Positions 3,575 to 56,477 of a stretch of 64,000 nucleotides of DNA are shown piece after piece. A program made the position numbers and the translations under genes. The notes beneath the pieces were generated by a model that saw only the letters and a program-made list of their open reading frames with translations, had not been told where the DNA came from and made no database searches. Numbering within the stretch: the stretch's first letter is position 1; each line of letters starts with the position of its first letter. Source of the DNA: Kiritimatiellia bacterium (GTDB taxonomy: Bacteria > Verrucomicrobiota > Kiritimatiellia > RFP12 > UBA1067); NCBI GenBank assembly GCA_017544725.1, contig JAFYDR010000158.1, forward strand, positions 615 to 64,614, in the 5' to 3' direction.

Positions 3575-4674
3575 ACTTGTCCTTTCGTTGATTTACGGAC
3601 CACCAACGTGGCCTCAAGGTTGATCTCGCGAGGAGGGAGCGCAGGATCGTAGATACGCTCCAACAGGGTACGTACCGCCACGGCGGCAATGGCCTCGCAG
3701 GGTTGCCGTATTGTCGTGAGCGGCGGCGAAAGCAGCTGTGCGCAGGAAACATCATCGAACCCGGCAAGCATCGTGTCTTGCGGCACCCGCTTTCCGATGT
3801 CGGTCAGCGTCTGAAGCAGACGCGCCGCCGTGCGGTCGTTGCCGCAGATGAAAGCATCCGGGGCCACACCCTTCCGAAAAAGACGGCGCACGGCATCGAC
3901 ATCGTCCGGAAAAGCGATGCAGACATTCGTGTCGCGCCACGGGATGCCCGCACCTCGCACCGCCATCGCAACGCCCTCGCAGCGCTGGAAGATCGTCGGT
4001 GCGGAGTGAGGCGGCATGAAGAAGCAGATGTGACGGGCACCTTGGGCGATGACGTGCGCCGCCAATGTGCGCCCTGCGCGGATGTTGTTGATACCCACCA
4101 GATCATACTGACTGCGCCCTTTGGCGGAAACGACATCGCGATCGAGCAACACGACCGGAATGTGATTTCCGTTGAGGATAGAAAGTATCTCGAGACTCAA
4201 CTCGGTGCTGTCCGGCAACAGTTCGATCGGTTCAAAGAAAACACCCGCCACGTGTCGGCTCGCGTAGTCCGCCGCAAGAGCCTGCGCCTGACGGACACGT
4301 TCGAGAGGATTGGACGAAGAGACATCGCCGAACAAGGTGGTATAGCCTGCTTCACGGCTGACACGCGCGATCTCCGCGCAGATAGGCGTGAAGATTTCCA
4401 CGTTGCGATGTCCGGGAACGATCAGCCCCAAACATCCCGTCGAGTTGCGGGCCATCGGACTTAGGTACGTGCCAGAACCCCGACGCCGCTCCACGAGGCC
4501 GTACTTCTGCAACTCCAGCATCACGCGGATCATCGTCGAGCGCGATGCATTGAATCGGCGCACCAACTGGTTCTCGCTGGGCAGTCGCAAGACATGGTCG
4601 TATTTTCCGGCGAGGATCTCACTCCTCAACATTCGGAAGATGTCCCTGTACTTGATGTTCGTATCGTCTGCCAT
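3571..4674 (-). CDS. Transcriptional regulator, GntR-type wHTH fused to a LacI/PBP1-type sugar-binding domain (AraR-like architecture)
   Basis: N-terminus IFRMLRSEILAGKY...LPSENQLVRRFNASRSTMIRVMLELQKYGLVERRRGSGTYL is a GntR wHTH. The remainder (LGLIVPG..., VVLLDRD, GFDD) looks like a periplasmic-binding-protein-type effector domain. It is first in the sugar operon. Confidence 0.85.
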   Translation of the reverse strand: MADDTNIKYRDIFRMLRSEILAGKYDHVLRLPSENQLVRRFNASRSTMIRVMLELQKYGLVERRRGSGTYLSPMARNSTGCLGLIVPGHRNVEIFTPICAEIARVSREAGYTTLFGDVSSSNPLERVRQAQALAADYASRHVAGVFFEPIELLPDSTELSLEILSILNGNHIPVVLLDRDVVSAKGRSQYDLVGINNIRAGRTLAAHVIAQGARHICFFMPPHSAPTIFQRCEGVAMAVRGAGIPWRDTNVCIAFPDDVDAVRRLFRKGVAPDAFICGNDRTAARLLQTLTDIGKRVPQDTMLAGFDDVSCAQLLSPPLTTIRQPCEAIAAVAVRTLLERIYDPALPPREINLEATLVVRKSTKGQV

Positions 4675-33849: not shown

Positions 33850-36324
33850 TCATAACACGGAAACGAGGGCAACGCGGAACCCCTGGTTGTCAGCGGGCGG
33901 GGCATCACCCGGTTTGCAGCTGCGGCGAGCCGAGCGGCAGTCGCTTGCTTCCCGAGACCAGCTTCCGCCGCGTCTCAAACGAATATCACCCGATGACGAG
34001 CCGGTTGGATTGGTCACGCTGGAGGAAGGGTATCCCCCGTATCGGTCTGCGCACCATTCCCACACGTTCCCGTGCATATCGTACAGTCCCCAGGCGTTCG
34101 GCTTCTTCTGCTTTACGGGGTGCGTCTTGTTTTCGCTGTTGTCGCGAAACCACCCCATTTCGTACAAATTCCCCGTGCCGCCGTAGGCACCGGTCGTCCC
34201 CGCGCGGCAGGCGTACTCCCATTCCGCCTCTGTTGGCAGACGCATCCCGCACCCCAACTCCTCGTTTACCTTCTGGATGAATCTCTGGCAGTCTCCCCAA
34301 GAAACCCTCTCCACGGGGCGAAGATCCCTAGCAAGAAAACTCAAAACCAAATCCTTGACGGGAAAACAGGACAATTCCATCCTCTGGAATCTTGCGGGAT
34401 TGCTCTTCATCACGCTTTCCCACTGACGTTGCGTCACAGGCGTATCCGCCATCCAGAAACCCCTCGTCAGCGTTACGCGATGCAACGTCTCATCCCAAGA
34501 CCGTCCCTCCTCGGAAGCCGGGCTTCCTATCTCGAATGTGCCGGGCGGACACCAGCGGAACCGCATCTCCGCGCCTCCCGGCAGTGTGATCACCTTCTCC
34601 GATCCAGGTTTTCTCTCCGAATCCTCACGGATCTCCCTCGCCTTTGTTTTGGAGTGCATATATTTTCTCACCTCGTCCGGCAACCTTTTGCAACAGAATA
34701 AAGAGAGACGAGTCCAAACCCTTCGAATGAGGAAAGCCAACTCCCCCAATTTTTCCTTTGCGGTTTCCGCATAATATGTTAGTTTCCCTTTACTCGCCGA
34801 CTCTTCCCTTTTCTTATTCAGGCGGGAAAGGAAAAACAGAAACAAAAAAATGAAAGGTACGGCTCCGACCACATACCAGAGCCTTGACCACGGCAGAAGC
34901 CATCCAAACCCTAGGTAAAGAGCCGATAGGGCACCCGAAATCGCGGCGCGCATTTTCTTACGGGCTTCATCGTATTGGATTCGTGACACAAGGCTTTCGG
35001 CGCTTGCCTTGACCCATTCGCGGTAGGAATTCAGCCGACTCCCTTCAGTGGAAATCCTTTCTTCAAACCCGTATAACACCGCATCCAATCCAGGAGAGAG
35101 CTCCCGTTCCTTGCGGATAGAATCGCCCAGCGTCCGAAGTTCTTCATCCGTGAAAACAGGCGTTCCGTGTGTCCCTTCCATTTTTTTACAGACTAGGGAA
35201 TAAAGCCTGTCGTACCAGTCCTCGTCAATTACCAAGCGATCACGCCATAATTCGGAAGCCTCACGAATCTCCGCATCCTTACGCGTCGCCTCCTCGTAGA
35301 AAGGCAGTTCCTTCACGGACTCTGCGAGATTCGCTGATTTGCGGACATACCGGAAGCACCTGTTGCGAAAAGTCTCGGCTGCCCGGGCAAAACTTCGTAA
35401 CGCATCCACCCGTTCTGGAAGTGGAGATCGATTGCGCAGGTGACGGGCCACCTCGTTGCGCGTATTCAAGTAGGCGAAATACGAGTTCTTGAGCTTCAGA
35501 AGAGCCGGGCGAGCATCATGGACAAGTCCCGCGACCGACAGCAGGAAACCAAAAAGACCATCCGACTCAATCGTTTCCGGCGGTTTTTTATTGTCATAAT
35601 TCAACTCATTCACCGCCGAGATGCAGATAATCGGAACTTGGTGTCTGTCCACCACCTGCAGGAGGTCAGGCGCACGTCTGCCTAGATAGAGGAACGCCCC
35701 GCCCGCGTTCTGGATCTCCTCTCGCAACAAGTGTGTCTGCGTGAGCACGACCAGAGACTTCTTCGCAATGTCGGGGTGATCGTTCAACAAACTCCAAAAG
35801 ATTTTCACCGTCTCCGCGAAATTCCGCCTCTTCTCCTCACGAACCGCCTCATCACAAGAGGTACCCACATTGATGAACAAGCATACGAGACCAGCTCGAA
35901 ATACCGCCGTGCGGATCTCACGCTGCCGACTCTCCGCCTGCGTCTCGGATGTCCCCAGCAGCACATCCGCAACCATCCCACCGTCATTCCCCGGCGCAAA
36001 CGCCTTTCGGATATCTTCCCCGGAACAGTCCATCGTCTCCAGCGAGAACACATGCCGCCGACCGGTATAGACATTCCAAGACAGCTTAGTCGGATCGCTC
36101 TCCTTTGTAGGCTCTGGCCACTCCCGAATCTCGAGTTTTTGGCATGCGTCGATTACCACATTTCGCGTCACGGTGTTGACCGGCTCCATACGAAACCCAA
36201 GAGCCTCCGCTCTGTCACTGCCGCCGGCAATCATATACTTCCGTCCCAGCACGGAAAGACAGACCGTCTTTCCGCTGGACTGGATTCCCAGAATAACTAC
36301 TTCAGGTGTTGCTCTATTTTCCAT
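33850..36324 (-). CDS. TRAFAC-like P-loop GTPase (paralog B) - 2 TM - FGS domain fusion
   Basis: N-terminus [50 protein letters not shown]. Hydrophobic [39 protein letters not shown]. C-terminal FGS: [59 protein letters not shown]. Confidence 0.8.
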   Translation of the reverse strand: [824 protein letters not shown]

Positions 36325-38926: not shown

Positions 38927-40675
38927 TCAACAACACCTGATCGCGATGATAACAACCAGTATGATCACGATAACAACAAAAATCCCACAGGACGTGTCAG
39001 AAGAAGGTTTGGGCTGCGGCATCGACTGATGATGAAGTTCCTTCAGCTTTTCCAAGCCTTCCTGGCATCGCTTGTATCGCTGTTTCAGATCTGTCATCGC
39101 GACCGAGACCAGATCCCTGTTTTCAGTCGCTCCACAAAGCCTACCGAGTTTCTCAAGACCTCCATCGATTTTGGATGCGATTTTCTGGAAATCATCCACG
39201 GCCTCCGGGAACGAAAATCCGCCTACGACTGACTCCGCCGCGGCAAGGCTTTCCTCCAGTTCCCCGACCTGATTCCGAAGCTTCCCCACCTTGTTCGCCA
39301 GCATCACGGAAATCATCGCCATGCCAGCCCGCACCCAGGCAACGCGATCCTCATACGGAGACCGCCGCAGGTCAATGCTCTCGTTAAACCCGAAGACCGC
39401 GTCCTCTCCGCTTTCCGGAAAGGACTTCATGACACTTGCGATCAAGTCTGTAACGTCCCGGTCGCGAATCTTGCTCTCCACCTCATCCTCTTCCTCGTCG
39501 GGACGAACCAGATTCACGCGCCCGTACGCGCAGAGTTTTTCATTCCACACCTCATCGATCCGCAGACGATCCTTCCACAGGTTCTCCGCCTCGCGGATGT
39601 CACCCTCCACGCGCGTGGTCGCGCGGTATTTACTGCCGGGAAACTTTTCTTTCAGATTCTCCGTATCCTTGAGGTAATCCAAACATCCCTTGCGGAAATC
39701 GGAAGCCGCTTGTGAAAACTTGCGCAAATGGAAAAGACGTTCTGGCAGAGGACTGCATAGCCAAAGGTGCCGTGCGACCTGATCGCGGGAACGGAGATAG
39801 TCATAATACAGGCCTTTCAGTTTCCCCAGCGGGTCTTTCTTCCCCGCCACGATCCCGCCGACCGTGAGCAGGAAACCGAAGAGTCCGTCCGACTCGATCT
39901 TCTCCGGTACCGCATTCTCGGAACTCGTCTCGTTCACCGCCGAGACGCAGATGATCGGAACCTTGCGACGCTCGATCTGCTGCTGGAGATGCGGCATCGA
40001 TTTTTCCAAGTAAAGGAAGGGACCTCCGGCGTTCCGGATCTCCTCACGAGCCAAATGAGTCTGCGTCAGCACAAGCAGACACTTCGAGGCGATTTCGGGG
40101 TGGCTGTTCAACAGATCCCAGTAGCAATCCGCCGCATCCTTCAAGCCTTGGTATTTCTCCGGATCCCGATCCGCCCCCTCCCGCAGCGCGGACACATTGA
40201 TGAAAAGGCAGACGAGCTTTGCCCGATCCACCTTCTCCCGCAACTCGTCCACGCGGCTGTTCCTTTGTGATACTTCACCGGCATCGGTTTTGAGAAGCGC
40301 GTCCGAATTGCCCCCGTCCCCCTGCGATTTCGATTCCCGGTTCAGGAAAGCATCCTTGATATCCTCCCCCGACCAGTCCGAGGTCGAGAGGTCGAATATT
40401 TTGCGCTTCCCCGTACAGACCTCCCAGCGCAATTCGGTGACCGCCCCCCTGACAGTCGCGCGCGGCCATCCGCCCCGCAACAGATGCTCGTACTCGCGAT
40501 TCATCAGCCCGAGCGTTTCTTTGTCCTTGGCGATCATCCGGAATCCCAAGGGCGCGACATTGCCACCGTCGGCGGACAAGGCGTATTTGCTACCCAGCAC
40601 CGACAGAAAAACCGTCTTCCCGCTCGACGGCATCCCCAGAATCACAACTTCCGGCATCCCATCATTTTCCGTCAT
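38927..40675 (-). CDS. Tail-anchored TRAFAC-like P-loop GTPase, paralog D
   Basis: [19 protein letters not shown] (D-x-x-G kept), [35 protein letters not shown]. C-terminal TM [20 protein letters not shown]. Confidence 0.7.
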   Translation of the reverse strand: [582 protein letters not shown]

Positions 40676-50153: not shown

Positions 50154-51866
50154 TCAACTACCACACGGTTCCGCAGAACAGCAGAGACGGAAACCGATAC
50201 CGCAACTCCTGTGCAACGGTCCATCTTTGCTTCGGCTCGCGGAACGACAAGACGGAAAAGGGCTACGCCAGCACCCACCACGTTGCACACGATAAGAGCC
50301 TGTGGCTGGGCCAATCGGATCGGTCGCATCCCCCGACAGATACTTGCCGTACCAATCTGCGCACCACTCCCACACATTTCCGTGCATATCGCATAGTCCC
50401 CAGGCATTCGGCTTCTTTTGCCCAACAAGGTACGTCTTTCTAAAAAGGCTTCCAATAGGTCCCATACTTCCCCACCAGCCCATCTGACCCAATTTTCCCG
50501 TTCCACCGTATGGACCAGTCGTTCCCGCCCGGCAGGCGTACTCCCACTCAGCCTCCGTCGGCAGACGCACAGCGCAATGTAACTCCGTGTTCACCTTTTT
50601 GAGAAACTCCTGGCAATCCTTCCACGAAATCTGCTCGACGGGTAATGCGTCATTACCGGTAAACTTCGACGGATTGTTCCCCATCACACTCTTCCACTGC
50701 CCCTGCGTGACAGGATACTTACCCAACCAGAACCCCTTCGTCAATATCACACGGTGATAGGTCTCGTCACCGCTACGTCCCACCTCTCCGTTCTCACTGC
50801 CCATCCAGAACGTTCCGGGGGGACAGTAAACCAGCTCCAACTTGGCACCACCGGGAAGCATAAGCGTCTTTACAGTGCCAGCTGTCGGATAGGATGCGGG
50901 AGACGAGGACGTTGCCCCTCCCGACAACGGTATATCTGACTGCGATACGCGCATTTTCTCGGCGCAGTCAGAACAACAATTGGCGGATTGATCGTAGTGG
51001 TTCTTGCAGAGGTAGTCTCGACCACAGATGCGGCAACGGAAGGTTGCGTCTTCTTCGTTACGCGAACCGCACAACGGACAAGTCACGGTCGCGAGAGACA
51101 CGTCGTTGGAGACCATCTGATCATCCCCTTCGATCAGAACGATACGTGGCCAATCAACCGTTTTTTCGCTTTCGGGCTTTTGTCCTGTGTAACAACTATT
51201 CGCCCGCGCCGCCTCCCCCATCCGCTCGTAAACTTGTTTGAGGAACGAGTTTCCAAAGACAAGTTCCTGTTTCTTGTCTCGGCAGTGCGTCATCACGCGG
51301 TCAATCGCGTAGGTAAAGATTCCGTGCCCCAGTGACTCCAGTTCCAGGGCACTCTGTCCCGAACCGCAGGAACGCCAAACCGCATACGTGCCACCTCCGC
51401 GATTCCCCATCATCGCGGACATCGGAACAAGGTCGCGAGGTTTCGCCTTTCCGCGCTGTCCGGAAAAGAAATTCGAGCGACAAGCGTCCAGAATGAAGAT
51501 GCTGTTCTGTCCATTCCGCAACGTTATATCGCGCAACATAGAGAAGGGAATCCCTGCCCGATTGTACTGGAGATTCGCATACTTGTCATCCTTGCAAAAC
51601 AACAATTCGTCGCCCCCGCCCGGACTCATGAACCCATGTCCTGCGAAATAAAAGACAAAGAGATCCCCTGTTCCCAGTCCGGCGGTCATCGCCTCAACCC
51701 ACTTTTCCACATCCCCTCGCGCTGGGTCCGGCAACAGTTTTGTCTCAAAGCCGCAAAACTTGAACTGCGCCTGTATCTCTGACGCATCGCCTACCGCATA
51801 ACGCAGATTCTCGATCTGTGCGTCCTGATACTCATTTACCCCCACAAATAATGCCTTACGCTTCAT
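50154..51866 (-). CDS. Caspase-zinc ribbon-FGS protein, paralog 4 (shortest linker)
   Basis: MKRKALFVGVNEYQD, FYFAGHGF, FILDACRS, CPLCG...CRICG...CSDC. FGS motifs RVILTKGFWLGKYPVTQGQW, RLPTEAEWEYACRAGT, GLCDMHGNVWEWCADWY, QRGGCW. Confidence 0.85.
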   Translation of the reverse strand: MKRKALFVGVNEYQDAQIENLRYAVGDASEIQAQFKFCGFETKLLPDPARGDVEKWVEAMTAGLGTGDLFVFYFAGHGFMSPGGGDELLFCKDDKYANLQYNRAGIPFSMLRDITLRNGQNSIFILDACRSNFFSGQRGKAKPRDLVPMSAMMGNRGGGTYAVWRSCGSGQSALELESLGHGIFTYAIDRVMTHCRDKKQELVFGNSFLKQVYERMGEAARANSCYTGQKPESEKTVDWPRIVLIEGDDQMVSNDVSLATVTCPLCGSRNEEDATFRCRICGRDYLCKNHYDQSANCCSDCAEKMRVSQSDIPLSGGATSSSPASYPTAGTVKTLMLPGGAKLELVYCPPGTFWMGSENGEVGRSGDETYHRVILTKGFWLGKYPVTQGQWKSVMGNNPSKFTGNDALPVEQISWKDCQEFLKKVNTELHCAVRLPTEAEWEYACRAGTTGPYGGTGKLGQMGWWGSMGPIGSLFRKTYLVGQKKPNAWGLCDMHGNVWEWCADWYGKYLSGDATDPIGPATGSYRVQRGGCWRSPFPSCRSASRSKDGPLHRSCGIGFRLCCSAEPCGS

Positions 51867-51916: not shown

Positions 51917-54553
51917 TCACCTTGAACTCTCAGCCCCATCCATACGCACGTCTGCTGAACAGCAGAGGCGGAAACCGCAACCGTCGCGACGAGTGTCGGA
52001 TTCCATGTCGTTACGGAACACGATCCTACATGCATAAGCCTGAATATACCAGGTGCCACCACGTTGCACGCGGTTCGAACCAGAATTCGTATCTTCGTTA
52101 CACGGATCACTTTTCGGCGAATGCGAATAGTAGTTCTTGTCATATATATCACGACACCACTCAAACACATTCCCGCTCATCCCGACAATGCCTAGCTCGT
52201 TGCCGACATCCTTTTCGCGCACCGAATGAGGACGGCATTTGTTCGAGTCCAGTTTTTTGTTGTCCCAAGACTGTTCAAGAAGCCGTTGAACGCCAGAATT
52301 TTCATAATACCAGCCCACCTTATCCATCTCATTACCCCCACTGTATATGTATCCTTTCGATTTGTTTCCGCCTCTCGCCGCAAACTCCCACTGCGCCTCG
52401 GTAGGCATCACCCACGTTCGTCCACTCCGTTCATTCCGATTTAGGACTTTCACAAGCATGTCGCAATCGTTCCAGCTGATACTTTCCATCGGAAAGTCAG
52501 ATGTGTCCATATCGTTTACGACATCACGTTGATAACCTTGCTTGGAAAAAGCGGCTACAAGATTCTCGTTGCTAAACGCGACATTGTTTGCGACGACAAG
52601 CTCTGACCATTGACGTTGCGTGACAGGATATTTTCCAATCCAATACCCCTTTGTAATGCATACCGAATGTATCGGCTCTGCATCTAGTGAATACTTTCCC
52701 CCCATCTGAAATATTCCCGGCGTAACATAAACCATCTCCATCTTCACCCCGCCAGGCAGGATAAAGTTTTTCATGGTACCTGCCGCTATTTTTTCATCCT
52801 GCATTTTGTTCTCGGTTTTCTTGTCACGAATCCGAACAACCTGTCCAACTCTGATCTTCTCAAAATTCACGCCTGGATTCCACGTACGCAAGTCCTTTAT
52901 CCTTATCCTATGACGATAAGCTATAGAAGCCCATGTATCCCCATTTTGGACAATATACGTATCGTTTGTACCAAGAGACTGGTTGCCGCTTGATTGGGAA
53001 TCGCCTTTCTTGGAGTCATCCTTTTGTTTCGATGTGGTTTCACTTGTTCCAGACTCTTGTTTTGTAACAACAGCTTCTTCTTTTTGTTTCAACGTCGCCT
53101 CATCCGCAAGCCGCTGTTGTTCCTTTCGAGTTTCTGTTAGACACGTTTCGAAGAGTTTGGCAGCCGCTATGTACGCGGTTGACGCCTCCCTGAATAGCAG
53201 ATTCGTCATACAAGTATCGCCATTTGCAAGCAACTTTACCGCCTTGTTCCAAGAAACCTGCGCATATTGTTCCCCCTGTACCGCCTTCGCTCGTTCCCGA
53301 GCCTCGATTACGGCGTTGCGATTCGTTACCGCATTCTTCTGGTCGGATTCGGATACAAATAGCTTTTTCACGGGCAATGGTTTTGTCGTAGATTTTTGAT
53401 CCTCGCCTGCATAGACTGGCACAACCGAACCGATCTTTTCCGCTTTTTTGTCCACGTGTTGACTGGCAGGGACAATGACTTTCCGCTGATTCCGATACCA
53501 TGTAACACCTCCGATGACAACAGCCGCAATCAGCGAAATGGCGAGGAGCAAGAACGCTCCTTTCCGAAGAGCGTTCCGTTTCGTTTCTGTTTTCTTAAGC
53601 TGATCCTTATTCGAGCCGTTTTCTTCAGGGTCGTCCTGATCGGCTTTCTCGCAAGACTTGCAAACGCCCGGATTCCCGGACGAGTGCGCCAGGCAAAGGT
53701 TATCCTTGCTGCACACCTTGCACCGGAACGTCTCCGTCACCCGATTCTTCCTGCCGCACAACGGGCACTCCACGATCGTCTCCTGTTGAGAATGAGGCGG
53801 TTCCGGCACTCGCCCTTCGACCAAGACCACGCGTCCCCAGTTCGCCGACATTTTGATTTCCGGCGTTTGGTTGAGCTGAAGATTGTTCTTCTCGGCGATC
53901 GTCATCATCCTGCCATAGACCGATTGCGCGAATGACTGGTCAAAAACCAGCTCCTCCCCCGATTCCCTGCTGTTGTCAATCACCTCATCCATCGCCAGCG
54001 AGAAGACGCCTCGCCGTACCGACGGCAGCTCCAATGCGCACTGCCCCTGTCCGCACGAGCGCATCACCGCCAGCCCGCCGGACCGGACGTTTTTCACGTA
54101 ACTGTCCACCGAAGGAAGCAGGTCCCGCAGTTCTCCCACGCCCCTTGTCGCGAACGGATTCGAACGGCAGGCATCGACGATAAACATACGGCTCAGTCCC
54201 GCCCGTTCCGTCTTGGACTGAAGCAACCCGAACGGAATCCCCGCATAATTGAACTGGATGTTCACGTACTGGTCATCCCGACAGAACAACAGATGGTCGT
54301 TCCCGCCGGGCGCGGAGAACCCATGCCCCGCGAAGTAGAAAAGAAACTCGTCGCCCGCCCCAAGCCCCTCCGTCATCCTCGTGAACTCTTGGATCACCTG
54401 ATCGCGGCGCGGATTTGCCAGTAGAACTGTCTCGTAGCCGATCGTACGAAACTGCGCGAGCATCAGCGCCGCGTCATTCGCCGCGCACTGCAAATCATGA
54501 ATACTCTCGTCATCGTACTGATCGACACCTACGAATAGTGCTTTCCGCTTCAT
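51917..54553 (-). CDS. Caspase-zinc ribbon-TM-helical-LysM-divergent FGS protein, paralog 5
   Basis: Start MKRKALFVGVDQYDD at 54553 (the track start is 54595). FYFAGHGF, FIVDACRS, CPLCG...CKVC...CKSC. TM GAFLLLAISLIAAVVIGGV. LysM YIVQNGDTWASIAYRHRIRIKDLRTWNPGV...VGQVVRI. FGS ITKGYWIGKYPVTQRQW, MPTEAQWEFAARGG, GMSGNVFEWCRDIY, QRGGTW. Confidence 0.85.
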   Translation of the reverse strand: MKRKALFVGVDQYDDESIHDLQCAANDAALMLAQFRTIGYETVLLANPRRDQVIQEFTRMTEGLGAGDEFLFYFAGHGFSAPGGNDHLLFCRDDQYVNIQFNYAGIPFGLLQSKTERAGLSRMFIVDACRSNPFATRGVGELRDLLPSVDSYVKNVRSGGLAVMRSCGQGQCALELPSVRRGVFSLAMDEVIDNSRESGEELVFDQSFAQSVYGRMMTIAEKNNLQLNQTPEIKMSANWGRVVLVEGRVPEPPHSQQETIVECPLCGRKNRVTETFRCKVCSKDNLCLAHSSGNPGVCKSCEKADQDDPEENGSNKDQLKKTETKRNALRKGAFLLLAISLIAAVVIGGVTWYRNQRKVIVPASQHVDKKAEKIGSVVPVYAGEDQKSTTKPLPVKKLFVSESDQKNAVTNRNAVIEARERAKAVQGEQYAQVSWNKAVKLLANGDTCMTNLLFREASTAYIAAAKLFETCLTETRKEQQRLADEATLKQKEEAVVTKQESGTSETTSKQKDDSKKGDSQSSGNQSLGTNDTYIVQNGDTWASIAYRHRIRIKDLRTWNPGVNFEKIRVGQVVRIRDKKTENKMQDEKIAAGTMKNFILPGGVKMEMVYVTPGIFQMGGKYSLDAEPIHSVCITKGYWIGKYPVTQRQWSELVVANNVAFSNENLVAAFSKQGYQRDVVNDMDTSDFPMESISWNDCDMLVKVLNRNERSGRTWVMPTEAQWEFAARGGNKSKGYIYSGGNEMDKVGWYYENSGVQRLLEQSWDNKKLDSNKCRPHSVREKDVGNELGIVGMSGNVFEWCRDIYDKNYYSHSPKSDPCNEDTNSGSNRVQRGGTWYIQAYACRIVFRNDMESDTRRDGCGFRLCCSADVRMDGAESSR

Positions 54554-54585
54554 CGTCCCTGGCTCCTTAACTCCTCTGACGGAAA

Positions 54586-54614
54586 AGAATACCAAACTCT
54601 TGCATTTCCCGCAA
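54586..54614 (-). promoter_or_regulatory. Putative promoter TTGCGG-17-TATTCT in the conserved leader of paralog 5
   Basis: Minus-strand -35 at 54609-54614 and -10 at 54586-54591; AAGGAG RBS before the ATG at 54553. Confidence 0.35.
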
Positions 54615-54881: not shown

Positions 54882-56477
54882 ATGAGTAATCAAAAAGAGA
54901 AGAAAGGACTCCAATTAGGACGCTTGATCATCGGATGTGTGATTCTTGCGTTGACCGCTTTCTTCGCGTGGCTCCTCGCCCGCAATTTCCTTCTGCCCGC
55001 ACTCAGCGACTACGAACCTGTTCCGTGCCGAATTATCCACTCGAAGGTTGTACAAAAACGGCTGGATCGTTTCGCCCTGTCCGTCTCCTTCTCCTACAAA
55101 TACAAGGATCGCAAATATACCTCCCGTTCGCTTTGCAAACCGGACGAGAACGAATTCGTTTTCACCCGTCTCGCTGAAAGGCGTCCGCTTCTTGAAAAGT
55201 ACGCACCGGGCAAAATGCAGATTTGCCGCGTGAATCCGAAGTCACCTTCGGATGCCGTTCTTCGCGTGGAGCCGGTCTTCAAAAATGATGACGGAGGCAT
55301 GGATGTTGTGAAACGAGGTCTTCCCGTTATAGGCCTAGCGCTCCTCTTTGGCATCGGTGTCTTCTTGATTGCATCCGCGTTCCCGTCCGTCCACGGTCTC
55401 GTGTCGTCCCGTTTCAGCAAATTCTCTCCGGCTCTGATGGTCATCCTATTTTCGCTCCCGTTCACCTTATTCGGGACCATCGGTGCTTATTCCAGGCTAC
55501 AAGGCCGTGGCGAGACGAACAACTATGTACCGGTCTCTGCAAAAGTGCTCTACTCCGGTCTTTGTTCGCACCAGTCCAGAGGACGGCGACGTTCGACCAC
55601 CTATTCCGTCCGCGTCGGGTATGAATATGTCGTGAACGGACATACGTACGAGAGCGACAGGTACTCCCCAGTCGAAATCAGTACGAGCGGTTATGAGAGC
55701 CATCGTCGTAAGGCGGAAAGCTACAAAGTCGGGAACATGATAACGGCATACGTTTCGCCGACCGATCCCCGCAAGAGCGTACTCGTCCGTTCTGTGGCTC
55801 TTGACGAGTGGTTCCCCATCGTGGCGATGGGGTTATTCGGCATCGCTGGGATCGGCATCATGATGAGCGGAATCGGGATGCTTTTCTCCGCGTTGCGGCA
55901 AAAGGAGGCGATACCATCTACCTTCGAAAGTTACCCGCTGACGTGTACGCATGGCGAATTGGCCGGACTGGGTTGTTTCGCCATCTTCTGGAATTTCCTC
56001 ACCGGGGGATTGCTATTCGGATTCTATGTTGGCGGTATCTTTCAAAATTTCAGCCCCGTCTTCTACTCCCTCGCGATTTTCCCAATCATTGGAATCGTGC
56101 TTGTCGCCGTGTTTTTCCGAGGACTTGTGCACGAATTAACGTCACCCAAGTTCACGATGACGCTTTCGTGCGCGATGTGGACACCCGGTGCCGGTGCGCA
56201 GATCGACTGGAAACTAGAGCGGGCGGACGAAGTGGAGTCGTTGGAAATCATTTTGGAAGGCGCGAGATGGACGGGCGGTAAGCATCGGCGCAAGATTGTT
56301 GTCTCCACTTCCTCTTGCTATCAGCAGGAAGGTCAGCTTATTCCAAAAATCTGGCGGTTCGGGTTCTCGGTTCCCGAAAGTCTCAACGACGTGAAATGGG
56401 CATTCATCGTCATGATGAAAGTGAAGAACAAACGACGCCCATACAGGCTCTACTTCGCCTTGCCTATAACTTCATAG
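54882..56477 (+). CDS. Membrane protein with two DUF3592-like modules
   Basis: Two copies of the pattern TM - beta segment (PVPCRIIHSKV...SVSFSYKYKDRKYTS...YAPGKMQICRVNPKSPSDAVL; YVPVSAKVLYSG...VRVGYEYVVNGHTYESDRYS...YKVGNMITAYVSPTDPRKSVLV) - TMs. 531 aa. Confidence 0.6.
   Translation: MSNQKEKKGLQLGRLIIGCVILALTAFFAWLLARNFLLPALSDYEPVPCRIIHSKVVQKRLDRFALSVSFSYKYKDRKYTSRSLCKPDENEFVFTRLAERRPLLEKYAPGKMQICRVNPKSPSDAVLRVEPVFKNDDGGMDVVKRGLPVIGLALLFGIGVFLIASAFPSVHGLVSSRFSKFSPALMVILFSLPFTLFGTIGAYSRLQGRGETNNYVPVSAKVLYSGLCSHQSRGRRRSTTYSVRVGYEYVVNGHTYESDRYSPVEISTSGYESHRRKAESYKVGNMITAYVSPTDPRKSVLVRSVALDEWFPIVAMGLFGIAGIGIMMSGIGMLFSALRQKEAIPSTFESYPLTCTHGELAGLGCFAIFWNFLTGGLLFGFYVGGIFQNFSPVFYSLAIFPIIGIVLVAVFFRGLVHELTSPKFTMTLSCAMWTPGAGAQIDWKLERADEVESLEIILEGARWTGGKHRRKIVVSTSSCYQQEGQLIPKIWRFGFSVPESLNDVKWAFIVMMKVKNKRRPYRLYFALPITS

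Follow-up and report, generated by a model that had tools for sequence, protein, structure and literature searches.

A predicted single-pass membrane orthocaspase with a LysM-FGS ectodomain and an exchangeable C-terminal cassette in a rumen Kiritimatiellae bacterium

Caspase-like proteases of bacteria are now known to trigger immune effectors. We know of no account of how such proteases are switched on from outside the cytoplasm and, to our knowledge, membrane-bound orthocaspases have so far been a matter of speculation only. Conflict systems of the caspase-FGS and DO-GTPase (GAP1-N2-type) classes have been predicted by Kaur, Burroughs, Iyer and Aravind (eLife 2020, PMC7159879; eLife 2021, PMC8195603), who suggested a membrane-proximal role for the GAP1-N2 systems. 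Transmembrane metacaspases and orthocaspases have also been predicted, with the architectures metacaspase-TM-CHASE2, OCA-TM-WD40 and metacaspase plus peptidoglycan-binding domain (Asplund-Samuelsson 2012, PMC3501461; PMC7475262), and the review PMC7475262 proposes that membrane-bound orthocaspases are 'initiators' that activate cytosolic ones. Among the partner domains of bacterial metacaspases FGE-sulfatase ranks fifth in frequency, and the same survey (PMC3501461) also records a partner that binds peptidoglycan. A transmembrane caspase acting as a one-component system has been considered before (PMC3501461, PMC7475262).

The gene described here occupies 51917..54553 on the (-) strand of the window, the 64,000-nucleotide stretch of DNA that was analysed; all features given below lie on that strand. 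The host is a rumen Kiritimatiellae bacterium, and its closest relatives are MAGs from rumen and omasum. As in the systems of Kaur et al., an N-terminal caspase is combined with a C-terminal, predicted non-catalytic FGS in an island of co-directional genes for candidate DO-GTPase-like proteins, further caspases and AAA+ ATPases. The reading frame is open over 51917..54595; the start at 54553 (MKRKALFVGV) is common to all paralogs and gives a protein of 878 aa, followed by the stop. These limits draw on the ORF, its translation, Pfam, an AF2 model (mean pLDDT 77.5) and the independent alleles P0246, P0247 and P0245. ENA and JGI samples yielded the head-TM-LysM fusion independently (96%, 99% and 93% identity); with four independent assemblies carrying it, the gene is not an assembly chimera. 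Pfam matches Peptidase_C14, LysM and FGE-sulfatase, and the order from N- to C-terminus is Peptidase_C14 caspase, double Zn ribbon, TM, stalk, hairpin, LysM and FGS. The original prediction, made on the letters of the DNA, had given the same order (caspase plus Zn ribbon, single TM, helical and low-complexity sequence, LysM, FGS), which Pfam and AF2 reproduce. It had set the TM at 53501-53560 and the LysM at 52829-52960, within a few bases of the 53495-53560 and 52829-52957 found here, with ~180 aa between them, where we count 179. It had also denied the protein a signal peptide, and no N-terminal one results from either the 54553 start or the longer TTG start.

The caspase domain (Peptidase_C14; residues 1-250, 53804..54553) is recognised by Pfam, AF2 and Foldseek and is predicted to be cytoplasmic. 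PF00656 matches residues 2-233 with 63.1 bits against a cut-off of 21.4. The His77/Cys129 dyad (codons 54323-54325 and 54167-54169) is intact, in the motifs FAGH77G and DAC129R, and is invariant in 11 homologs; in the AF2 model, where the head reaches pLDDT >90, the two residues sit at the ends of strands 69-76 and 121-128. Foldseek matched the head to MALT1 and GSU0716 (E ~1e-11), that is, to the caspase/hemoglobinase fold. The dN/dS of the caspase is 0.07-0.13 between alleles and 0.13 against the paralog p656, and by this measure the head is under purifying selection. From the invariant dyad, the MALT1/GSU0716 fold and these ratios, the domain is predicted to be catalytically competent. The double Zn ribbon that follows (CxxC...CxxC...CxxH...CxxC; residues 260-305, 53639..53776; AF2 and alignment) is likewise modelled at pLDDT >90 and keeps its Cys/His pattern in homologs. 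It shares 80% identity over 44 aa with p656, homology to which ends at about residue 302, and is the last module that the protein has in common with the cytosolic paralogs. The caspase-ZnR head, which three cytosolic paralogs of the same island carry as well, is 79% identical to theirs.

The junction between head and tail is a charged, disordered juxtamembrane segment (residues 306-331, 53561..53638; pLDDT <50 over residues 308-332), predicted to be cytoplasmic. It leads into a single TM helix (residues 332-353, GAFLLLAISLIAAVVIGGVTWY, 53495..53560) identified by KD19, dG and AF2. The protein has one hydrophobic segment, GAFLLLAISLIAAVVIGGV, with a KD19 of 2.59, within an uncharged stretch of 22 residues (332-353). 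On the Hessa scale it has a dG of -1.97 kcal/mol (19 residues), the sole negative value in the protein, the next-best segment scoring +6.99, and an AF2 helix at 325-355 spans it; the single TM that had been claimed is borne out by both scales. The helix ends in GG plus aromatic residues, as in kinase-TM-FGS relatives, and there are zero differences from allele L018 over residues 306-355. Six K/R residues lie within 15 residues on the N-side and three on the C-side, a bias above the mean of +1.4 for 38 homologous bitopic proteins, mostly kinases, whose kinase domain must be intracellular. The N-terminus of the 878-aa protein is polar.

Five independent computational lines argue strongly for a bitopic N-in/C-out topology, with the caspase in the cytoplasm and LysM and FGS outside, since there is a single insertable segment with a K/R count of 6 versus 3 and since all five other LysM proteins of the genome carry export signals (5/5 with lipoprotein or signal N-termini in a whole-genome LysM scan). 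The same orientation is indicated because the FGS nests in a clade found behind signal peptides or kinase/GTPase/caspase-TM segments, because TM, hairpin and FGS tail resemble those of receptor Ser/Thr kinases in relatives, and because a 93%-identical allele exchanges the FGS for an OmpA/Pal-type peptidoglycan-binding domain. Helix and charge bias, the exported LysM proteins and the FGS clade thus lend computational support to the earlier placement of the protease inside and LysM-FGS outside.

Beyond the helix lies a predicted periplasmic, disordered stalk (residues 354-401, 53351..53494; pLDDT <50 for 356-410), within which allele P0247 has a 5-aa indel. The helical hairpin after it (residues 402-499, 53057..53350; AF2 helices 412-443 and 447-499, pLDDT ~70-80) has no match in Pfam or PDB, and it shares 31% identity over 98 aa with P0017, a kinase-TM-hairpin-FGS protein (pairwise E 3e-15). 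A low-complexity spacer rich in S, T, K and Q in the translation (residues 500-532, 52958..53056; pLDDT <50) separates the hairpin from the LysM domain (residues 533-575, 52829..52957). The LysM was matched by PF01476 with E 3.4e-10 and 40.1 bits (cut-off 20.9), by 45 bits in the genome scan and by 30.8-43 bits in the alleles; NCBIfam matches over this region are to LysM-bearing surface or wall proteins such as MltD. AF2 gives short elements in the sequence expected of the beta-alpha-alpha-beta LysM fold (strand 533-534, helices 541-547 and 552-555 and strand 573-574), but at pLDDT <50 where the alignment has no depth. Between alleles its dN/dS is 1.5-2.4 (8N:1S and 10N:2S), the first half of the domain holding the changes, and LysM plus linker give 0.6-2.4 on small counts; this near-neutral pattern could reflect relaxed constraint, not an arms race. 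The genome's PBP transpeptidases and OmpA-like proteins show that the cell has a sacculus, and the LysM (plus OmpA where present) probably binds peptidoglycan and ties the ectodomain to the wall.

The C-terminal FGE-sulfatase-fold (FGS, C-type-lectin-like) domain spans residues 591-870 (51944..52783; Pfam, AF2, Foldseek and tree). Its Pfam match covers residues 606-863 with 140 bits, and it is modelled at pLDDT >90. Foldseek returned TvpA, FGE, PvdO and PorK, the best match being 2y3c (TvpA; E 1.2e-16, TM-score 0.72 normalised by target, phmmer E 2e-12); the FGE fold is recovered by phmmer at E 5e-14 to 6muj and 2q17 and by Foldseek at E ~1e-15. A true FGE/SUMF1 was rejected, for the fold is present but only one of both Cu(I)-binding cysteines is. 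The first of the two Cu-binding catalytic cysteines is replaced by Ile (RGGTWYIQAYAC versus RGGSYLCHDSYC in Streptomyces FGE) and the second is kept; the consensus RGGSWxxxARxCRS, drawn from aligned FGS domains that are mostly of the exported clade, also has no first catalytic Cys. As aligned, the domain has lost this FGE catalytic Cys, and we regard it as non-catalytic, not an enzyme.

Its identity to the four other FGS domains of the island is 29-34%, against 41-66% among those four, in keeping with the claim that it is the most divergent, and is 55-63% to FGS domains located behind signal peptides or kinase-TM segments. In an ML tree it falls in a clade of 51 domains (support 100/95), 39 of which follow a signal peptide or an odd number of TM segments; among the others, several have signal peptides below the hydrophobicity threshold or come from truncated proteins. 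The cytosolic caspase-FGS paralogs group apart, in a clade of their own. The exported clade also occurs in purely secreted lipoproteins (e.g. P0002, P0006-P0014), and the nearest FGS domains in one congeneric and one same-family genome are in kinase-TM-FGS proteins. The FGS lacks the marks of diversification by a DGR: no second DNA copy (template repeat) of the C-terminal region was found in the genome, its RT matches sit on other contigs, and the FGS is near-invariant between alleles (1 difference in 281 codons).

The allele P0245, 93% identical and from another metagenome, carries an OmpA/Pal-type peptidoglycan-binding domain in place of the FGS (42.5 bits against a cut-off of 27.2; matches to Pal, OmpA and MotY), with the TD..YN..L..RA motif kept. 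The exchangeable cassette is bounded by a spacer (residues 576-590, 52784..52828), and between codons ~590 and 600 the nucleotide identity to allele L019 falls from ~90% or more to the level of chance. The alignments show that the C-terminal cassette has been swapped between near-identical alleles, and the FGS is not a fixed part of the protein. Because P0245 has an OmpA/Pal-type domain instead, the constant theme of the ectodomain appears to be wall binding.

Sequence comparison also shows a chimeric ancestry, in which the local caspase-ZnR head was probably joined to a TM-hairpin-FGS tail from a lineage of receptor Ser/Thr kinases, with a LysM that has no traceable donor among the sequences compared. 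The same modules recur in other combinations: caspase-(ZnR)-TM-FGS in P0012, P0039 and P0176, kinase-TM-FGS-LysM in P0027 and P0070, and one TM-FGS tail on both a caspase head (P0012) and a DO-GTPase head (P0062). Receptor-kinase ectodomains and caspase, GTPase and kinase heads shuffled as modules in this way link bacterial Ser/Thr-kinase signalling to conflict systems. In a set of 5.8 billion proteins the TM-linker-LysM region was found in this allele cluster only, and 40 related genomes lack it. The fusion was seen in one species-level lineage only, and so narrow a spread offers no broad conservation that would argue for an essential role.

Downstream, after a gap of 50 nt in which no terminator-like site was found on the gene's strand, lies p570 (50154..51866), a cytosolic caspase-ZnR-FGS gene by Pfam with no hydrophobic segment in its product. 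It is the constant neighbour of the transmembrane caspase across the alleles, with an ortholog following in L018 and L019 (80% identity in L019), and p570 is a candidate partner or substrate of that protein. The other paralogs had been expected to lack a TM and to be cytosolic. This holds for the three other caspase-FGS paralogs, whose maximum KD19 is <=1.24 and whose cytosolic location is supported by the absence of an insertable segment, but not for the GTPase-FGS fusion (33850-36324), which has one strong and one marginal hydrophobic segment. The island is co-directional, comprises DO-GTPase-like proteins, further caspases, AAA+ ATPases and Snf7/Vps4-like proteins, and is rich in membrane-associated components. 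PF19975 (DO-GTPase1) matches 38927-40675 with 34.9 bits (cut-off 27); two other genes, at 26.8 and 20.2 bits, and the GTPase-FGS fusion, at 13.8, fall below the cut-off. Among the island genes scanned, no Pfam match suggested a GAP1 partner.

We put at about an even chance the reading that the protein is a bitopic inner-membrane orthocaspase with a wall-bound ectodomain, activated by clustering and acting as an envelope-facing initiator. The cytoplasm would hold the caspase (His77/Cys129) and double Zn ribbon, the same head as in the three cytosolic island paralogs; the one helix (332-353) would cross the membrane; and stalk, hairpin, LysM and exchangeable cassette would lie in the periplasm. 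LysM, and OmpA where present, would tie the ectodomain to peptidoglycan, and the cassette, here a non-enzymatic lectin-like FGS and in the 93%-identical allele an OmpA/Pal-type domain, may in its FGS form offer a second ligand site. A change in the partner bound by the ectodomain, for which wall damage, muropeptides or a periplasmic foreign or self glycan or protein are candidate triggers, would cluster molecules in the membrane and bring the caspase heads together, giving proximity activation as in MALT1 and initiator caspases. The active protease might then cut cytosolic island components, p570 being the first candidate and the Snf7/Vps4-like and DO-GTPase proteins the next, which would make the protein the envelope-facing initiator of the island's response. 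Clustering is the only mechanism that seems plausible to us, because the two long disordered stretches between TM and binding domains could hardly pass on a conformational signal. We infer both this mode of activation and the substrates, and the same applies to sensing as opposed to mere anchoring.

Mere anchoring is in fact the strongest rival, although we hold it to be clearly the less probable of the two. Here the ectodomain would fix the caspase to the wall and inner membrane, and control would be wholly cytoplasmic, with nothing signalled across the membrane; such a site could be, for example, where the Snf7/Vps4-like and membrane GTPase proteins of the island act. LysM and an OmpA-like domain, as combined in the sister allele, are generic peptidoglycan anchors, long disordered linkers flank TM and LysM, a signal-conversion module such as HAMP is lacking, many components of the island are membrane-associated, and LysM and linker are near-neutral between alleles. 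However, FGS tail, TM and hairpin are traced to receptor Ser/Thr kinases, whose output an ectodomain is expected to control, the cassette is swapped between near-identical alleles in a manner typical of recognition modules and not of simple anchors, and activation of the clustering type requires no rigid linker.

Returning to the clustering reading, it can be extended to an 'extrinsic death pathway', which we consider rather improbable. The clustered, wall-tethered initiator caspase would sense peptidoglycan damage or foreign material (e.g. phage entry) and activate the caspase-FGS neighbour and the Snf7/Vps4-like and membrane GTPase machinery, sealing the membrane or sacrificing the cell, and the cassette (FGS or OmpA-like, with the fast-evolving LysM) would be exchanged between strains like immune receptors.

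It is quite unlikely that the outer part is the working end, binding and blocking a periplasmic target or reinforcing the wall, with a caspase whose sole task is to process or release its own protein. Kaur et al. (2020, PMC7159879) do propose FGS domains as 'neutralising' binders of invader molecules, and the FGS clade is represented among the purely secreted lipoproteins listed above. Yet no part of the protein is more strongly constrained than the caspase head, which is shared with cytosolic paralogs that have no outer part, and displaying a periplasmic binder requires no cytoplasmic protease.

We think it very unlikely that the hydrophobic stretch is buried or peripheral, or that the protein is inserted N-out, so that LysM and FGS would be cytoplasmic like the FGS of the paralogs. 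In published conflict-system models the FGS does act as a sensor inside the cell (PMC8195603), the caspase-FGS paralogs next to the gene are cytosolic, and a K/R count of 6 versus 3 is not extreme. Against this, the segment has a clearly negative dG and is flanked by disordered charged stretches instead of being packed into a domain. Export of a 330-aa Zn-binding N-terminal region that has no signal peptide is very unlikely. LysM and OmpA-like domains bind the wall outside the cytoplasm, every other LysM protein of the genome is exported, and the FGS belongs to an exported clade. Kiritimatiellae are rich in sulfatases, and the Pfam name FGE-sulfatase, 47 such matches in the genome and a fold like that of solved FGEs might suggest a true formylglycine-generating enzyme that matures exported sulfatases, but this can practically be dismissed with the first catalytic Cys an Ile and missing from the FGS consensus too, with FGE requiring O2 and the closest relatives inhabiting the anaerobic rumen and omasum, and with the close allele P0245 doing without the domain altogether.

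The preferred reading, a clustering-activated membrane orthocaspase, departs from the models of Kaur et al., in which the FGS is an intracellular invader sensor that is often DGR-diversified (PMC8195603): here it lies behind a TM with a LysM, is not hypervariable, has no template repeat and is replaceable by an OmpA-like domain. The predicted transmembrane orthocaspases resemble the protein in having the caspase predicted inside and a ligand-binding domain outside, but they are cyanobacterial, have other ectodomains and none has a LysM; their FGE variant has two TM helices, which would put both domains on the same side (PMC3501461), and the present protein in addition shows tail ancestry from receptor kinases and an allele-level cassette swap. 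BlaR1/MecR1 (PMC9834060) provide a precedent for a one-component sensor-protease, with an outer sensor and a cytoplasm-facing protease in one polypeptide, although BlaR1, built from several TM helices, a zinc metalloprotease and a sensor that binds penicillin, is unrelated in sequence and fold.

Hanks-type receptor Ser/Thr kinases (P0017, P0027, P0070, and relatives in G003 and G010) share the exported FGS clade (55-63% identity), a TM ending in GG plus aromatic residues, the hairpin (P0017) and an outer LysM plus FGS (P0027, P0070); their output is a kinase and not a caspase, and P0027 has FGS then LysM where the order here is LysM then FGS. Further analogues are PknB/PrkC-PASTA and plant LysM receptor kinases such as CERK1. 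The protein is a compact test case, as its caspase head also exists in soluble paralogs next door, its ectodomain is made of recognisable wall-binding modules, and natural alleles differ in the outermost cassette only (lectin-like FGS or OmpA-like). It looks like a bacterial 'death-receptor-like' protease, and if sensing is true, death-receptor signalling and plant LysM receptor kinases would both have a prokaryotic counterpart in it. MALT1 and initiator caspases are activated by induced proximity. Among solved structures they match the head best, leaving aside the bacterial GSU0716, and theirs is the mechanism proposed here, but they are eukaryotic and soluble, are recruited via death-fold adaptors and share 14-18% identity with the head.

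The target gene lies within an open reading frame spanning 51917..54595 on the minus strand, and since the island's four caspase paralogs share the N-terminus MKRKA(L/V)FVGV, its start was assigned to the ATG at 54553, giving a product (P0001) of 878 aa. Neither of the two possible starts yields a signal peptide. Pfam identifies Peptidase_C14 at residues 2–233 (63 bits), LysM at residues 533–575 (52829-52957, minus strand; E 3.4e-10, 40 bits against a cut-off of 20.9) and an FGE-sulfatase (FGS) domain at residues 606–863 (140 bits). The protein has a single hydrophobic stretch, GAFLLLAISLIAAVVIGGV (KD19 = 2.59), within 22 uncharged residues (332–353; 53495-53560, minus strand). On the Hessa scale of 2005, the predicted dG for insertion of this segment is -1.97 kcal/mol, compared with +6.99 for the next-best 19-mer of the protein. 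An AF2 model based on a 72-sequence alignment (mean pLDDT 77.5) is confident for the caspase domain (residues 1–250), a Zn ribbon (260–305) and an FGE-fold domain (590–870). Between these it places an isolated helix (325–355, pLDDT about 64–74), disorder (356–410, pLDDT below 50), a helical hairpin (402–499, pLDDT about 70–80) and a region including the LysM domain (501–586) that is of low confidence because the alignment has no depth there. The domain order of the original prediction (caspase and Zn ribbon, then transmembrane domain (TM), LysM and FGS), the lack of a signal peptide and the membrane-spanning nature of the hydrophobic segment are therefore all borne out, and the TM and LysM coordinates it gave were correct to within a few bases.

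The MAG to which the window belongs, as contig C89, measures 3.8 Mb and is 75% complete; a sugar transporter encoded in the window's flank is 96% identical to one from a goat-rumen Kiritimatiellae MAG. PBP transpeptidases and OmpA-like proteins are encoded in the genome, indicating that a peptidoglycan wall is present. The target gene is the first in a co-directional minus-strand array (23879-54553) that also encodes three further caspase-Zn ribbon-FGS proteins (the cytosolic paralogs p656, p714 and p570), one GTPase-FGS fusion, three DO-GTPase-like proteins, one stand-alone caspase and two Vps4-like AAA ATPases; scans for promoters and terminators gave background levels. The island is flanked by a gene for a DUF3592 membrane protein (54882-56477, plus strand), homologs of which, 62–64% identical, are found in two congeneric genomes. 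None of the island genes is present in the stretches retrieved next to these homologs, and the island is therefore variable. FGE-sulfatase domains are matched 47 times in the genome, many of them arrayed in tandem within one contig (C124, C166, C289, C360). The GTPase-FGS fusion p824 (33850-36324, minus strand) was considered as a second protein with an outside FGS, a candidacy weakened by its marginal hydrophobic segment (460–478) beside a strong one (482–500), followed by a strongly basic C-side flank; its topology is ambiguous, and it may form a membrane hairpin that returns the FGS to the cytoplasm.

The N-terminal part of the target closely resembles its neighbours, with the caspase and Zn ribbon being 79% identical to p656 and 78% identical to p714. 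This similarity ends abruptly near residue 302, just past the final CxxC of the Zn ribbon, and in the DNA the match is limited to the first 910 nt or so. A dN/dS of 0.13 at a dS of 0.94 between target and p656 shows that the duplication of the head is old and that it is under purifying selection. The caspase and Zn ribbon constitute a fixed 'head' module. The double Zn ribbon itself (CxxC...CxxC...CxxH...CxxC; 53639-53776, minus strand) is conserved behind the caspase in all of the caspase-FGS paralogs and in many homologs.

A phmmer search of the PDB with the caspase head gave no match, PADLOC returned only its generic 'caspase' model and NCBIfam only sub-threshold matches. A profile built from full-length homologs was dominated by their Sel1 tails, its sole return being a weak match to the bacterial caspase-like protein GSU0716, and the catalytic dyad was therefore assessed from invariance, the AF2 model and Foldseek. 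His77 (FAGHG) and Cys129 (DACRS) are invariant across 11 homologs and are placed at the C-terminal ends of strands 69–76 and 121–128 of the AF2 model. In clan CD proteases the catalytic His and Cys are located at the ends of two core strands. Foldseek matched the head to the MALT1 paracaspase as well as to GSU0716.

As originally predicted, the FGS of the target is the most divergent of the island, being 29–34% identical to the other four, whereas those share 41–66% identity with one another. No close paralog was found in its own genome, and a search of 40 related genomes with the target returned matches to the FGS part only. Proteins from metagenomes and from related genomes carry FGS domains that are 55–63% identical to it. 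These domains lie behind a lipoprotein or signal sequence (P0002, P0006-P0014 and others) or behind an internal TM that follows a Ser/Thr kinase (many proteins), a DO-GTPase-like domain (P0062) or a caspase (P0012), and the nearest FGS domains in a congeneric genome (G003) and a genome of the same family (G010) belong to kinase-TM-FGS proteins. In a maximum-likelihood tree of 110 FGS domains the target is nested in a clade of 51 members (support 100/95), 39 of which follow either a signal peptide or hydrophobic segments in odd number; among the rest, several have signal peptides under the hydrophobicity threshold used or are truncated proteins. The cytosolic caspase-FGS paralogs form a separate clade (100/80) in which 19 of 21 lack a TM. 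One clade relative, the 1268-aa protein P0002 (ENA), is a secreted lipoprotein with four tandem FGS domains of two alternating subfamilies, 'exported' (59% identical to the target FGS) and ordinary (35–36%).

The hairpin (402–499) has no relative in Pfam or the PDB but shares 31% identity, across 98 aa, with the outer region of kinase P0017, and the TM is closed by GG and aromatic residues as in the kinase-TM-FGS relatives. Both features point to a receptor-kinase origin of the tail. Since the head matches local paralogs while the tail matches the receptor-kinase lineage, the target gene is a chimera, in which a local caspase-Zn ribbon head gives way, somewhere between residues about 302 and 332, to a TM-hairpin-FGS tail; no donor of the LysM domain could be traced. 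Head swapping on a constant receptor tail is also seen elsewhere: the caspase head of P0012 and the DO-GTPase-like head of P0062 are followed by TM-FGS tails that hardly differ and share their juxtamembrane sequence. The gene for P0012 (contig L009, 405-4049) sits in another cluster, together with three caspases.

A survey collected 29 proteins combining caspase and FGS domains, and a TM separates the two in four (P0001, P0012, P0039 and P0176). P0176 has the caspase-Zn ribbon-TM-FGS layout of the target without the LysM, and LysM is otherwise combined with FGS only in the receptor kinases P0027 and P0070. No relative emerged when the genome-contig collection was searched with the whole protein, or the metagenome-contig collection with the TM-linker-LysM part, and a word-index search with residues 303–592 returned only its own cluster plus one weak LysM match. 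By these searches the TM-linker-LysM region seems confined to its own cluster.

That cluster, at 90% identity, holds three further sequences from other assemblies: P0246 (878 aa, 96% identical; ENA), P0247 (873 aa, 99% identical; ENA) and P0245 (714 aa, 93% identical across residues 1–590; two JGI contigs). P0245 retains the caspase, Zn ribbon, TM, hairpin and LysM, after which an OmpA-family domain (PF00691, 42.5 bits against a cut-off of 27.2) replaces the FGS. This domain matches Pal, OmpA and MotY in the PDB and keeps the TD..YN..L..RA motif. The allele lies at 4599-6743 of contig L019 (JGI 3300029305), corresponding to 52784-54553 of the window, and its nucleotide identity to the target collapses at codons about 590–600. 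An assembly chimera can be dismissed, as the same fusion is present in independent assemblies. The outermost module of the ectodomain is an exchangeable cassette, and because LysM and OmpA-family modules both occur C-terminal to the TM, peptidoglycan association is likely to be its constant function. In both sequenced allele contexts the next gene is an ortholog of p570 (50154-51866, minus strand; 80% identity in L019). Directly upstream of the TM caspase, L019 carries a 129-aa gene (4191-4580) with a weak Peptidase_C14 match, and the rest of its upstream context (an ankyrin protein and others) is unlike the window.

Between alleles, dN/dS is 0.07–0.13 for the caspase, 0.6–0.8 for the linker and 1.5–2.4 for the LysM domain (52829-52957, compared with L018, which carries the P0246-type allele, and with L019; 8N:1S and 10N:2S). 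LysM differs from caspase by Fisher tests (p = 0.02 and p = 0.0008), with changes concentrated in the first half of the domain, round the GDT motif; the counts are too small to separate relaxed constraint from diversifying selection. Divergence between P0001 and P0246 is mosaic, the FGS and TM being almost identical (no changes in the TM region) and the linker (52958-53494, minus strand) carrying 33 changes in 175 codons, which suggests recombination between alleles within the gene.

Five independent computational lines argue strongly that the target is N-in/C-out, and it very probably has, as foreseen, its protease in the cytoplasm and LysM and FGS outside. The sole insertable segment is bordered by disordered, charged stretches rather than packed into a domain. 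The 15 residues that precede the TM include six K/R, against three after it, and the mean difference in 38 homologous bitopic proteins is +1.4; most of these are kinases, whose catalytic domain must be cytoplasmic. A 330-aa Zn-binding N-terminal region would not be expected to undergo export when it lacks a signal peptide. The genome's five other LysM proteins all have lipoprotein or signal N-termini. Finally, the tail is of receptor-kinase ancestry, and its FGS belongs to a clade found mostly behind signal peptides or an odd TM count. The occurrence of both a LysM and an OmpA-family module C-terminal to the TM would also be hard to reconcile with a cytoplasmic location.

Alignment to Streptomyces FGE (target RGGTWYIQAYAC, FGE RGGSYLCHDSYC) shows that the first of the two Cu-binding catalytic cysteines is Ile in the target, and the consensus of the 72-sequence alignment, drawn mostly from the same clade, has no Cys at this position. 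The FGS is therefore predicted not to be an enzyme. Structurally it is best matched by TvpA (a surface variable protein), FGEs, PvdO (periplasmic) and PorK (a ring lipoprotein of the periplasm). Targeting by a DGR was rejected, since the genome has no template-like repeat and reverse transcriptase matches lie on other contigs; unlike DGR targets, the FGS (51944-52783) shows one change in 281 codons between P0001 and P0246.

Wall binding by the ectodomain is likely, and the main rival to a sensing role is that the ectodomain is purely an anchor. We give an even chance to the fuller model, in which the target is an envelope-coupled initiator caspase whose sensing, activation mode and substrates we infer. 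LysM, with OmpA in the sister allele, would tie the ectodomain to the wall and the FGS would offer a second ligand site; an altered ligand or wall state might then cause target molecules to cluster, so that the cytoplasmic caspase heads activate by proximity. Rigid conformational signalling is ruled out because the linkers are disordered. The conserved neighbour p570 would be the likely first substrate. With its natural alleles and soluble paralogs as ready-made controls, the target merits testing at the bench.

Among the partner domains of bacterial metacaspases FGE-sulfatase ranks fifth in frequency, peptidoglycan-binding partners have been noted, and a metacaspase-TM-CHASE2 protein has been described whose protease is predicted to be intracellular (Asplund-Samuelsson et al., 2012, PMC3501461). 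For planctomycete DO-GTPase systems that have FGS effectors, a role close to the membrane has been put forward (Kaur et al., 2020, PMC7159879), and FGS has been treated as an intracellular sensor (Kaur et al., 2021, PMC8195603). Membrane-bound orthocaspases have been proposed as initiators for cytosolic ones, experiments being absent according to a 2020 review (PMC7475262). The target thus belongs to a kind that genome analyses had already predicted and is itself limited to one species-level lineage, and for a one-component transmembrane sensor-protease the experimental precedent is BlaR1 (PMC9834060).
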